In this document: positions 1-5,931 of the stretch, piece after piece
Layout: every line of letters begins with the position of its first letter
Numbering within the stretch: the first letter of the stretch is position 1
The notes under the pieces: generated by a model
The model's input: only the letters and a program-made list of their open reading frames with translations
Told to the model about the DNA's origin: nothing
Database searches by the model: none
Source: an uncultured cyanobacterium
GTDB lineage: Bacteria; Cyanobacteriota; Cyanobacteriia; PCC-6307; Cyanobiaceae
Length of the DNA: 64,000 bases
Direction: 5' to 3'
Assembly: GCA_963697335.1 (NCBI GenBank)
Contig: CAVONQ010000001.1
Location: 1-64,000, forward strand
Made by a program: the position numbers and the translations under genes

Positions 1-27
1 GGCCCATCAAAAAAGAGGAGAAACACA

Positions 28-2934
28 ATGGCTGAAACATCTATCAAAAACGATGTCTTCAAGTTTGTCGCTTTGCGTCCACCTACTAAACGAAAGATCC
101 AACCTCTATCACCGGGTCGCATCGTAGATACGCGACAGGTGAATGACACTCCTGTCGGCAGGATCATTCGGAAACTGGGAAGCAATGCCAATATGGACCG
201 GGTACTACCCCAGGTAAAGCGACTTATCAACGAGAAGAACTGGTCCTCGGAGATTATCAGGGACCAGGATGTAGCAACTATCGCGGCAACGTACCGAGCC
301 ATCGACGAGCAACTGCAGAACTTTTCTACTGAAGGCTTCGTCAAGTCGATTGAAGAGGCACTTGGTTCATCCCCAAAAGACTTTATTCAAAGCGAGTCGG
401 CAAATTATATTCGCGAGGGCTTGTGGGACCGATTACATGCCTTCTACCTATTAAATCGTGAGACTCCGGTTAACCTTGAAGAAATCATCGGCGGACTGCG
501 CGCTTTCCACATTGTTGAATCGTTGGCAAACGGCGAGCAATTTAGTTCAGCGGATGACCTTAGAGAGGCTTTGAATGCCGTAGTACTGCTACCTAATTCA
601 CTCGTGCGCATCGCACCTGTCACGTCCACAGAGCGTCCACGCGTTCGCGAACAGCAGGAACGCGATAAGGCTAAACGTGAACATTTTGTTAGCCTTTGGG
701 TCAGATACATCGAATTGAATAAAGCGGTTGATGACGTTCAACGACTAAATCCGAAAATTGAGGTGATAAAAGAAACACCGAAACCTGTATTGTACAAACA
801 GGAAATTGACATACCTCAGACAGCAACAAATGCGACAACGGATCGTGCATTGTTATCTGTCTCGATGCAGCGCTTCCCGAAGTTCGAAAAAGCCGATATC
901 AATGCATTGAGTCCCGCAGCTCATGCCGCAATTACACTTATTAATAAGGAGCCGGAGTTTAAAGATAAATTCGAAGCGTTAAACAAACTGCACGATGAAT
1001 TATCCAGTGTGACTGTGCAACTTCTATCTATTAAAGATCCGACACTTACGGAAATGATGCCTGATGAAGCAAGGCAACTACCTGCTTCCCTGACTATAAT
1101 GGCAAGAAATGAATATTTATCTAGCCTGGGATTTTCCGAATTACCATCGCCATTCCCGTATCCTTGGAAAATTAATTCACGGATTCGGCCGCTTGGTATT
1201 GGGGATCTCAAGGTTGTAAAACAAATCTTGCAGCAGTATGTTGCCGGCGAAGTCGCACACATCGAAAACGTGCTTCAGGGCGAGTCAAAAGAGCGCAAAC
1301 ACCGTATATTGGATCGAAACGAGGAGATTGTTACTGCCGAGTTGGAGACCTCCGAGGACACCGAACGCGACACGCAGACGACTGACCGTTTTGAGTTAAA
1401 AAAAGAATCAGAAAAAACAATTCAAACTGATATGAGTGTATCTGCCGGTGTTACGGTCAGTGCATCCTATGGCCCCGTCCAACTCGGTGCAAATGCCAAC
1501 TTTGCCTACAGTCAATCTCAGACAGATACAACACGGACTTCGTCAAACTACGCTCGTGACGTTGTAGACCGTTCAGTGACAAGAATTCAGAAAAAAACGC
1601 GCGAAGAACGAGTAACCAAAGCCCTCCACGAGGTTGAGGAAATTAATACCCATGGTTTGAACAATGCGGAAGGAACAGGAAATATTACAGGAGTATATCG
1701 CTGGGTGGATAAATATTACGAGGCACAGATTTACAACTATGGAAAACGCATGATGTTCGAATTTATCGTGCCCGAACCAGCCGCATTCTATATTTATTCT
1801 CAAAACAACAATCCAGCCAAAGCCATTAATCTGGAAAAACCGAAACCTCTTGGTAACATCACACACAAAGATATTACAGAATCGAACTATCATATCTTTA
1901 TCCGTGATTACAATGTGCAAGGAGTAACTCCGCCACCTCCGGAATATCATAGACTCGGGATCGCATTTGATCAGTCAGGCATGCAGCCAGACCAAGACAC
2001 AACAAAATCGAGTCACGACCTCGTCGTTCCCGATGGATATGCTGCGGTAGACTGGTTCGGTCAGGGAAACTACAGGTATTGGACAGGGCATGAGGCAGAC
2101 ATGAATTTGTGGATAGGAATAAAGGGGGGACATTTGGGAACATACCTTGACCCAGCACCGCTAAGTGGTGAGGACATGGTCGTTCCCGTAGCAATAGTAG
2201 CTGGTCAAATATCATCATACGCCTACACAGTTGAAATACATTGTGAACGGACTAGGCGTCATTACAAACAATGGCAGATCGATACGTTTGAGAAAATTAT
2301 GGCTGCGTATAAAGCAGCTATGGCTGAATACGAGGATAGACTGCGCGCCGCTGAAGCGCGGGTTGGTATCGCTATCACCGGCCAAAATCCAACCATCAAT
2401 CGAGAAATCGAACGTACAGAGATGAAGAAAAGCTGTCTTACGCTACTAACCGGAGAGCGTTACGAAAACTTCAACTCCATGAGTGGAGAACCACCCGAAA
2501 TCGATCTTGTGGATGCGGCAGAGGAAGGCAGATTTATTCAGTTTTTTGAACAAGCCTTCGAGTGGGAACAAATAACCTATCTATTCTACCCGTATTTCTG
2601 GGGTCGTAAGGATAAATGGGTAACGAATTCGACGACCTTCGACAATGATCCGTTATTTACAAAGTTTCTGCAGGCCGGTGCCGCGCGCATCGTTGTACCG
2701 GTCCAGCCCGCCTATAACGATGCGATCCTCTATTATTTGCAGACCGGGGATTTATGGAATGGAGGAGATCCGCCTGTTATCGATGATCCTCTTTATATCG
2801 CGTTGTACGAAGAGTTAAAGGATCAACAGGACGATCTTGGCAATGCGACACCGGAAGGCGATCCATGGAAAGTAGTCTTGCCAACGACTTTGGTTTGGTT
2901 GCAGCAAGGGCCTGAACTTCCAGTCTTCATATAA
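28..2934 (+). CDS. Uncharacterised 968-aa protein with a candidate beta-pore-forming/translocon-like central region
   Basis: Long ORF with RBS AAGAGGAG at 13-20. Ser/Thr-rich alternating segment DMSVSAGVTVSASYGPVQLGANANFAYSQSQT (about aa 468-499). No Sec signal. The CDS is secure; the function is inferred. Confidence 0.85.
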   Translation: MAETSIKNDVFKFVALRPPTKRKIQPLSPGRIVDTRQVNDTPVGRIIRKLGSNANMDRVLPQVKRLINEKNWSSEIIRDQDVATIAATYRAIDEQLQNFSTEGFVKSIEEALGSSPKDFIQSESANYIREGLWDRLHAFYLLNRETPVNLEEIIGGLRAFHIVESLANGEQFSSADDLREALNAVVLLPNSLVRIAPVTSTERPRVREQQERDKAKREHFVSLWVRYIELNKAVDDVQRLNPKIEVIKETPKPVLYKQEIDIPQTATNATTDRALLSVSMQRFPKFEKADINALSPAAHAAITLINKEPEFKDKFEALNKLHDELSSVTVQLLSIKDPTLTEMMPDEARQLPASLTIMARNEYLSSLGFSELPSPFPYPWKINSRIRPLGIGDLKVVKQILQQYVAGEVAHIENVLQGESKERKHRILDRNEEIVTAELETSEDTERDTQTTDRFELKKESEKTIQTDMSVSAGVTVSASYGPVQLGANANFAYSQSQTDTTRTSSNYARDVVDRSVTRIQKKTREERVTKALHEVEEINTHGLNNAEGTGNITGVYRWVDKYYEAQIYNYGKRMMFEFIVPEPAAFYIYSQNNNPAKAINLEKPKPLGNITHKDITESNYHIFIRDYNVQGVTPPPPEYHRLGIAFDQSGMQPDQDTTKSSHDLVVPDGYAAVDWFGQGNYRYWTGHEADMNLWIGIKGGHLGTYLDPAPLSGEDMVVPVAIVAGQISSYAYTVEIHCERTRRHYKQWQIDTFEKIMAAYKAAMAEYEDRLRAAEARVGIAITGQNPTINREIERTEMKKSCLTLLTGERYENFNSMSGEPPEIDLVDAAEEGRFIQFFEQAFEWEQITYLFYPYFWGRKDKWVTNSTTFDNDPLFTKFLQAGAARIVVPVQPAYNDAILYYLQTGDLWNGGDPPVIDDPLYIALYEELKDQQDDLGNATPEGDPWKVVLPTTLVWLQQGPELPVFI

Positions 2935-2938
2935 AGGG

Positions 2939-5794: not shown

Positions 5795-5856
5795 AACAAG
5801 ACTTAATACGGAAAAGGGATTAGCCTCAATTAACGGCGTACTCAAAGAATGAAATC

Positions 5857-5931
5857 GCCTAACACGGCACTAAACCCGACCGCCCAAAGTGCTGGCGCAC
5901 TTTGGGCGGCGGGTTAGTTTGAGCGTTAGCG
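5857..5931 (+). repeat. Integron attC recombination site
   Basis: R'' GCCTAAC (5857-5863), 5-nt spacer, arm ACTAAACCCGACCGCCCAAAGTGC, loop TGGC, arm GCACTTTGGGCGGCGGGTTAGT, 6-nt spacer, R' GTTAGCG (5925-5931). Two unpaired bases lie in the left arm. Confidence 0.88.

Follow-up and report, generated by a model that had tools for sequence, protein, structure and literature searches.

We report that a 5.9-kb, two-gene block at the start of a picocyanobacterial contig has the structure of an integron cassette. The window analysed here is the first 64 kb (64,000 nt) of contig C1 (CAVONQ010000001.1) from an uncultured member of the Cyanobiaceae (GCA_963697335.1), whose assembly comprises 2.58 Mb in 18 contigs with a guanine-plus-cytosine (GC) content of 68%. 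Window positions 1–5931, together with 3 nt upstream, very probably represent a single 5,928-bp cassette that entered at the R' core of the preceding attC recombination site, through site-specific recombination catalysed by an integron integrase (IntI), and that forms the distal member of a two-unit array lacking an integrase, located at a conserved position of the chromosome. On the + strand, the cassette body extends from the TTA of G|TTAGGC, 3 nt before the window (C7:221505 on the overlapping contig C7), to the G of R' at position 5925. Two co-oriented and intact open reading frames (ORFs), 4 nt apart, cover 97% of its length. The GC content of the cassette is ~46%, versus 66–70% in the host contigs. 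Along the window, it is 43–48% in positions 1–6000 and at least 59% after 6001 (66% for the whole of C1), which is the low-GC block with an attC near its end that an earlier sequence-only reading of this DNA had described.

An attC site closes the cassette

The closing attC is a 75-nt site on the + strand (5857–5931), identified by direct reading, by folding, and by a covariance model. Direct reading gives, in order on this strand, R'' (GCCTAAC, 5857–5863), a 5-nt spacer (ACGGC, 5864–5868), a 24-nt 5' arm (5869–5892), a TGGC loop (between 5892 and 5897), a 22-nt 3' arm (5897–5918), a 6-nt spacer (TTGAGC, 5919–5924), and R' (GTTAGCG, 5925–5931). The arms form an imperfect hairpin with a 22-bp stem (5869–5918), the 5- and 6-nt spacers are unable to pair, and the 5' arm, on the R'' side, carries two bulged A's (one of 5872–5874, and A5879) that are 6 nt apart. 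The sequence-only reading had proposed exactly this anatomy, with both R boxes, 5/6-nt spacers, long arms, and two extrahelical bases. The core consensus of attC sites is RYYYAAC for R'' and GTTRRRY for R', in inverse orientation and 50–150 nt apart. GCCTAAC fits the R'' consensus wholly and GTTAGCG fits GTTRR. Compared with the complement of R'', the first five of the seven bases of R' agree, and the departure after GTTAG was also anticipated. The expected crossover lies between G5925 and T5926. The bottom strand of the site folds at −30.4 kcal/mol, versus −14.9 ± 2.6 kcal/mol for shuffled sequences (z = −5.9), and none of 200 shuffles folds as well.

In this 68%-GC genome, a genome-wide heuristic search for AAC...GTT plus a stem listed 1,096 sites with a threshold of −12 kcal/mol and 665 sites with one of −18 kcal/mol; it was rejected as an attC detector on account of these numbers and was replaced by a covariance model, R1. 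R1 was derived from sequence that lies downstream of intI, taken from 12 mostly single-contig genomes within the genus and the family. Scanning this DNA for AAC...GTT plus a stem gave 41 candidates, of which 24 from 10 genomes were kept, none of them from the genome studied here; the kept sites lie in the low-GC stretch after intI and end in ...AGC GTT. Among the 17 candidates that were dropped, 16 lie in high-GC DNA without the AGC GTT ending, and one site of the type found in element B (see below) was omitted deliberately. In the R1 alignment, 94.6% of the cells are paired and 11 of the 15 stem pairs show changes on both sides, versus 29–43% paired cells in controls with the pairing partners slid by 1–3 columns. 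The 6-nt spacing of the bulges is also seen in all three attC sequence types of the training sites. In the arrays of relatives, R'' complements the previous R', with 7/7 matching bases in 10 and 6/7 in four of 15 consecutive pairs; examples among the training sites are GTTAGGT followed by ACCTAAC, GTTAGGA by TCCTAAC, and GTTAGAC by GTCTAAC.

On the 64-kb window, R1 gives a single match, at 5854–5934 and on the + strand only (41.3 bits, E value 6e-8). The covariance-model check that the earlier reading had proposed is thereby answered by a lineage-specific model, with a hit on the strand of the ORFs. In a control of 1.26 Mb of unrelated loci from other phyla, R1 gives one match at E ≤ 1 (22.5 bits), and on the loci of relatives it recovers 16 additional sites beyond the training set.

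The hairpin could instead be a terminator or a genome-wide palindromic repeat, in a low-GC island that arrived by another route, for example by targeting a transfer-messenger RNA (tmRNA) gene. A permuted, cyanobacterial tmRNA gene indeed lies at 10912–11214 (−; Rfam), ~5 kb downstream of the array, and the intervening DNA is variable among strains. At gathering thresholds, Rfam reports only this tmRNA and one tRNA in the window, and Rfam 15 has no attC family. What speaks against this explanation is that no T-run follows the stem and that BLAST finds no second copy of the site in the genome. In addition, GTT/AAC cores, 5/6-nt spacers, bulges 6 nt apart, and a 7/7 chain with the preceding site are not terminator features, the R1 match is strand-specific, and homology with the closest relative breaks exactly at the preceding R' core (see below). 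We consider a non-integron origin scarcely credible.

A second attC site opens the cassette on an overlapping contig

The window opens with GGC, followed by a Shine-Dalgarno-like GAGGAG on the + strand (15–20, by direct reading), 7 nt before the ATG of ORF1 at position 28. Only 27 nt separate the cassette start from this ATG, in line with the earlier statement that there is no room for a promoter of its own. That reading also predicted that the four bases directly 5' of position 1 are GTTA. The last 5.37 kb of contig C7 match C1 1–5363 at 99.5%, with 26 differing positions, of which one lies before C1 position 3122; the other 25 all fall in the final 2.3 kb of C7, and the indels among them disrupt ORF2 on that contig. 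Several other contig ends of the assembly overlap a neighbour by 5–8 kb at 97–99.6% identity; therefore, overlapping contig ends are a property of this assembly. Because the differences cluster toward the C7 end, we take C7 as the DNA upstream of the window. It reads ...AATCGTTA and then GGCCC, so that GTTA directly precedes window position 1, in agreement with the prediction, and completes GTTAGGC. Thus, C7 reads ...CGTTA|GGCC, and the cassette starts at the G|TT of the preceding attC.

This preceding, opening attC lies at C7:221422–221513 (+) and is matched by R1 over its full length with filters off (26.7 bits, E value 7e-6), which answers the suggestion to look for further attC sites upstream. 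It ends in the predicted GTTAGGC, its 5' arm carries a bulged C and a bulged A that are 6 nt apart, and all of its stem pairs are standard. Its R' (GTTAGGC) pairs 7/7 with the closing R'' (GCCTAAC), and the GTTGCTT further upstream likewise pairs 7/7 with AAGCAAC.

Another explanation of the overlap is that the upstream DNA is misassigned, with two cassette copies or two arrangements in the population, one represented by C7 and the other by C1. C1 begins 3 nt past the attC crossover point, which is improbable by chance, and the start of contig C2 falls 20 nt short of the end of a different attC-bounded unit, the recombinase/IS91 unit described below; assembly breaks at cassette junctions may reflect differing arrangements among the sequenced cells. 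The 26 differences between C7 and C1 also fit this explanation. However, other contig ends overlap too, and the crowding of all but one of the 26 differences into the final 2.3 kb of C7 is what a badly polished contig end looks like. Moreover, two copies would still each be a cassette beginning at the same core site. We therefore regard a misassigned upstream region as improbable, and the single cassette opened by the attC on C7 is the reading that we follow below.

On C7, the gene for a conserved host protein of 1039 aa comes first; after it follow a sulfatase segment of 2.1 kb, ~26 nt from the end of an attI-like region, a short element that we call B, and the cassette. Element B is a 135-bp, ORF-less sequence with its own attC, and its C7 copy is 97.8% identical to a copy on contig C16. 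Together with the end of the attI-like region (the last ~25 nt), it forms a repeated module (C7:221339–221514; C16:1874–2014) that is present in five of the 31 genomes of the genus at up to four loci per genome (four in G106, the closest relative, three in G173, and one in G132). At three integrase-less loci, B is followed by further attC sites. In general, B is seen to head attC arrays, and several of these arrays have no intI in their vicinity. Candidate roles for B are a fixed docking attC, a selfish mini-cassette, or a regulatory element. We found no support for B as the carrier of a promoter for the cassette: a scan of 500 nt upstream on C7, which takes in B and the greater part of the spacer that follows the sulfatase gene, shows no sigma70-like promoter. 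No terminator-like site is found on the + strand, either in these 500 nt or at the attC end.

The sulfatase segment (C7:219213–221340) has a GC content of 56–63%, contains a 544-aa sulfatase gene, and takes the place of most of the attI-like region present at this locus in G106. Sulfatase genes also occur inside a 10.5-kb attC interval of the relative G132.

An integron integrase gene lies on a different contig of the genome

A profile search of the contigs with TIGR02249 identifies an intI gene at C16:4662–5597 (−), with 466 bits versus a cut-off of 265, and none of 14 control genomes reaches this cut-off. No TIGR02249 match is found on C1 or C7, in agreement with the absence of intI from the window in the earlier reading. 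Homologues sharing 80–87% identity with the C16 gene are annotated as integron integrase in records from Cyanobium and Synechococcus, and these closest named relatives, together with the cyanobacterial tmRNA, support the picocyanobacterial host that had been proposed. The profile is above its cut-off in 104 of the 401 sampled genomes of the family, this one included, and 23 of 29 other genomes of the genus have a match at E ≤ 1e-40.

C16:1–5735 forms a complete integron, in which intI (a 359-aa ORF) lies on the same strand as the cassettes. The order on this strand is intI, an attI-like region, a 2.47-kb unit, element B with an attC-like hairpin of its own, and a MazE/MazF cassette that ends in an attC scoring 51 bits. 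The attI-like region spans ~190 nt after the intI stop codon and ends in ...CAGCG|TTG, and this end is conserved downstream of intI in several relatives. The 2.47-kb unit encodes a tyrosine recombinase and an IS91-type (Y2_Tnp) transposase and is bounded by G|TTGAAC and a GTTCAAC...GTTGCT hairpin. A second copy of this unit (99.1%) is found at C2:1–2456, beside ordinary host DNA and with no attC in front; it could result from IntI insertion at a secondary GTT site or from IS91-type transposition, IS91 having a preference for GTTC-like targets. In addition, a second intI gene, present as a fragment at the start of contig C15 (C15:5–680), is interrupted by an in-frame TAA, matches part of the gene on C16 at 83% nucleotide identity, and is probably a pseudogene.

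At least nine additional R1 sites are present in the genome (five on C14, two at the C2 end, one on C9, and one on C16), a lower bound, as that search missed the attC of the window itself. They include C14:78435–83894 (an array of five, with no intI match on C14), C2:311426–313242, and C9:7961–8058, with scores of 38–77 bits.

A related strain carries other cassettes at this locus

In G106, no more than 50 nt separate the same host gene (93%) from a complete attI-like region, and B comes next. After B, G106 has 3.6 kb of different genes, DUF262-like and HipA-like by reading, and then the gene found at window positions 6116–6947 (83%). The identity between the two genomes ends at GTTAGG, the R' core of the preceding attC. 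An empty site in a related strain, which the earlier reading had suggested looking for, was not found; G106 has instead an allelic array, with the same flanks and B and with other cassettes. After the closing attC, 184 nt (5932–6115) precede the point at 6116 where homology with G106 resumes; they contain no attC according to R1 with filters off and are probably a remnant of an older array end. Between the array and the tmRNA gene, the DNA at ~6950–8400 has scattered partial matches in relatives, and the whole stretch resembles a variable island.

ORF1 is found in none of the 400 other sampled genomes of the family. The absence of the cassette from all 400 suggests a recent acquisition, and the absence of ORF1 combined with the GC contrast points to a recent import. 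One activated-sludge DNA sample holds 21% of the sequence words, and its low-depth contigs cover parts of 2181–5778 at ~99%. This sample may be the source of the assembly and thus not independent. No excision or circle joints are found in this metagenome, for which contigs only were available, and no RNA sequencing runs containing the cassette sequence are listed. In the same metagenome, stems like that of the closing attC (window 5812–5921) occur in at least five different AT-rich flanks, each followed by GTTAG, which hints at a family of related attC sites in the integron of another, lower-GC host, to which this attC type would belong.

The cassette carries a PAD homologue behind a protein of no described family

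ORF1 (28–2934, +, from the ORF list) encodes a conserved 968-aa protein of no described family, and ORF2 (2939–5794, +) encodes a 951-aa homologue of the protein-arginine deiminases (PAD; PF03068). ORF2 matches PF03068 with an E value of 1.5e-35 (123.4 bits versus a gathering cut-off of 25) and the chains of human PAD4 and PAD3 with an E value of 4e-24. Its WLQDQ, GHIDE, and C-terminal HCGTN align to the motifs of PAD4 that carry the catalytic Asp, His/Asp, and Cys. By profile and motifs, ORF2 thus qualifies as a homologue of PAD-type arginine deiminases. It shares with the known PAD/PADI enzymes the PF03068 domain above cut-off and the active-site motifs of PAD4, and it differs in its length of 951 aa with long insertions, in having no recognisable PAD N-terminal or middle domains, and in its place beside ORF1 on a cassette. 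Cyanobacterial PADs are the subject of a published study (PMC8826395).

ORF1 has no match in Pfam, NCBIfam, or PADLOC. Among 8,000 candidates scored, 337 homologues are found at E ≤ 0.001, the best being a Massilia protein (64%) and unnamed metagenome proteins, and the ESM Atlas holds unnamed clusters only. In the genome collection, 477 of 570 candidate stretches contain ORF1 relatives, from many bacterial phyla and one archaeon, with family lengths of ~600–1000 aa. The AlphaFold model is poor (mean predicted local distance difference test score 57, below 50 in the conserved core); this poor model gives no Foldseek match in the PDB at E ≤ 0.001, and a PDB profile search returns one chance-level row.

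The genes next to ORF1 were analysed in 80 ORF1-family loci kept of the 477. In five of the 80 loci, the ORF1 homologue is followed by an ORF2-like gene, in the same order and at a distance of −3 to +49 nt (Chryseolinea, Anaerolinea, Verrucomicrobia, Thermoanaerobaculaceae, and a Proteobacteria metagenome-assembled genome). ORF calling found a gene downstream at 63 of these 80 loci, and together with ORF2 these genes form 22 unrelated groups (38 of the 63 were scanned against Pfam). The larger groups are a LodA-like lysine oxidase (13), a 360-aa protein without a name (11), and a PT-TG pre-toxin (7), and the smaller ones include PAD (5, ORF2 among them), Het-C-like (4), patatin (2), PLD, and PhoD. 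On the evidence of these gene orders, the ORF1 family represents an undescribed, modular two-gene system, in which a conserved protein is combined with interchangeable enzymes. A conserved large gene with swappable enzymes is the layout of many conflict systems, and by this analogy we offer a conflict or anti-phage role as a hypothesis only. PADLOC has no model that matches the cargo.

R1 finds no convincing attC in the 80 loci from other phyla. As the model is lineage-specific, this result does not show that those loci are free of attC sites.

The cassette could also be a fusion of two one-gene cassettes by loss of the attC between them, which is the usual account of multi-ORF cassettes. However, the 4 nt between the ORF1 stop and the ORF2 start leave no room for an attC remnant, and R1 with filters off finds no attC, not even a weak match, between the ORFs or elsewhere in 1–9000 apart from the closing site. 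The 4-nt gap and the presence of the same ordered pair in five of 80 loci of other phyla argue for one captured operon, and we judge a fusion very improbable.

Size of the cassette and its present mobility

The distance between the opening and closing attC sites is 5.85 kb. Of 39 spacings between consecutive attC sites in relatives, 35 measure 0.5–1.8 kb, one measures 2.9 kb, and three measure 6.1–10.6 kb. The three long intervals (6.0–10.5 kb) follow the chain rule 7/7; we considered them as clean giant-cassette analogues and rejected them in this role, one having two transposase genes and another mostly opposite-strand genes. In a 2016 paper (PMC4889954), the largest known cassettes are given as ~2 kb, about a third of the present length, and the default distance at which IntegronFinder clusters attC sites as 4 kb, the authors having also tried 10 kb.

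The sequence-only reading had left three options for the location: the last cassette of an array, a cluster of attC sites with no integron integrase (CALIN), or a solo insertion at a secondary GTT site. The first stands, as the last cassette of a short integrase-less array, and the locus is not a solo insertion. The locus is no complete integron, the genes upstream of the array being those for the sulfatase and the conserved 1039-aa host protein. By the IntegronFinder definition of a CALIN, which asks for two or more attC sites on one strand, spaced by less than 4 kb and away from any intI, the locus does not qualify, but it would with the 10-kb threshold. Like the CALIN elements described in PMC4889954, the locus has two attC sites on one strand, no intI nearby, and an IntI elsewhere in the genome; it differs in the distance between its sites, which is beyond the default 4-kb rule and within 10 kb, and in the attI-like remnant that is still present. 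This remnant points to a decayed or duplicated platform rather than to insertion at a secondary site.

Several points weigh against the interpretation as an IntI-inserted cassette. Its attC separation exceeds the IntegronFinder default, and the opening attC scores just 27 bits. R' deviates from GTTRRRY at positions 6–7 (CG), as one would expect, since neighbouring DNA supplies the 6 nt that follow the G. R1 is lineage-specific and was made in this analysis, from training sites chosen by a heuristic and by eye. The upstream context is read from the overlapping contig C7, outside the window itself, and if the cassette existed in two copies, the DNA upstream of C1 itself could differ from it. No recombination, circle, or excision product has been observed. 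In addition, according to a 2026 preprint (10.64898/2026.03.17.712381), cassette recovery drops with size, and recovery failed for a Vibrio cassette with a distance of 4 kb between its attC sites; the present mobility of a cassette of this size is therefore doubtful. Finally, the array has no neighbouring IntI gene and the sulfatase segment cuts its attI-like region short, so that it may be a fossil.

In its full form, the fossil explanation accepts a true cassette and holds that the integrase and most of the attI-like region have been lost, and that the element is now too long for synapsis, fixed, and vertically inherited. The absence of intI from C1 and C7, the reduction of the attI-like region to ~26 nt by a sulfatase segment that is absent in G106, and the reported loss of recovery with size (including the Vibrio case) all favour it. 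On the other hand, both attC sites are intact and full-length against R1, the stem pairs of the opening site being all standard, and an intact IntI is available in trans on C16. The absence from all 400 sampled relatives indicates a recent acquisition, and both ORFs are intact. We consider the fossil explanation unlikely, though it retains appreciable weight, and a cassette inserted by IntI, on which an integrase in trans could still act, is the reading that we prefer.

Discussion

The following course of events would explain these observations. A foreign two-gene operon would have been captured as a single unit. IntI would fold the bottom strand of the cassette attC, and the partner in the exchange would be the attC of B or, if B was not yet present, attI. 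The IntI encoded on C16, the only intact one in the genome, could act in trans on both attC sites and excise the cassette as a circle with the attC GCCTAAC...GTTAGGC, after which reinsertion could occur. The cargo genes, with a strong ribosome-binding site and no promoter of their own, would be transcribed from upstream, presumably by read-through.

The cassette is an unusually large, strain-specific instance of known integron cassettes. With the cassettes of Vibrio-type sedentary chromosomal integrons it shares the R''/L''/L'/R' boxes, unpaired spacers, and two extrahelical bases of attC, a promoterless ORF a few nucleotides after the core, chained R'' and R', and, on C16, a toxin-antitoxin (MazEF) cassette. 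It differs from them in its length of 5.9 kb, in its two ORFs of ~950 aa, and in its host, a 2.6-Mb, 68%-GC picocyanobacterium. With Treponema denticola-type integrons, the genome shares an intI on one strand with its cassettes (C16) and an attI-like region after the intI stop; here, in contrast, the cassette lies away from intI, and arrays headed by the attI-like end and B occur at several integrase-less loci per genome. These arrays are the less expected part of our findings, and we found no published account of them in the literature searched.

Published intI trees include integron integrases of 'Synechococcus sp.' (PMC3108266), and in PMC3607928 such trees place 'Synechococcus sp.' with Treponema, whose intI points toward the cassettes. 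Cyanobacteria are also listed among the phyla with integrons in PMC4889954. In the literature searched, we found no paper on picocyanobacterial integron cassettes, and the papers that name both picocyanobacteria and integrons appear to mention integrons only in passing.

Integron-borne anti-phage defence cassettes have reportedly been described by Kieffer 2025, Darracq 2025, and Getz 2025. The present cassette resembles such cassettes in being multi-gene and larger than average and in combining a conserved large protein with swappable enzymes (patatin, PLD), and it differs in that PADLOC gives no match. Integrons have been reported as stores of anti-phage systems in work cited in a preprint (bioRxiv 10.64898/2026.03.17.712381). 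A broader and tentative proposal, more doubtful than probable, is that Cyanobium-type picocyanobacteria possess a distributed integron, in which one co-directional IntI would serve several integrase-less arrays headed by the attI-like end and the 135-bp B and would move operon cassettes of ~6 kb. The cargo would then be a new conflict or anti-phage module, consisting of an ORF1 product of ~970 aa and an interchangeable PAD, LodA-like oxidase, patatin, PLD, or PT-TG toxin, and derived from a lower-GC bacterium with a similar attC.

The case has several implications. An integron cassette can consist of a compact operon with two genes and a length approaching 6 kb, and because the attC spacing exceeds the threshold of the standard tool, surveys may miss or split such arrays. 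The same gene pair occurs with an attC here and with none found by R1 in other phyla, which offers a concrete case for the study of cassette birth. It also flags a widespread ORF1 family, with 477 loci, that precedes swappable enzymes. Within the Cyanobiaceae, integron integrases are common among the genomes sampled.

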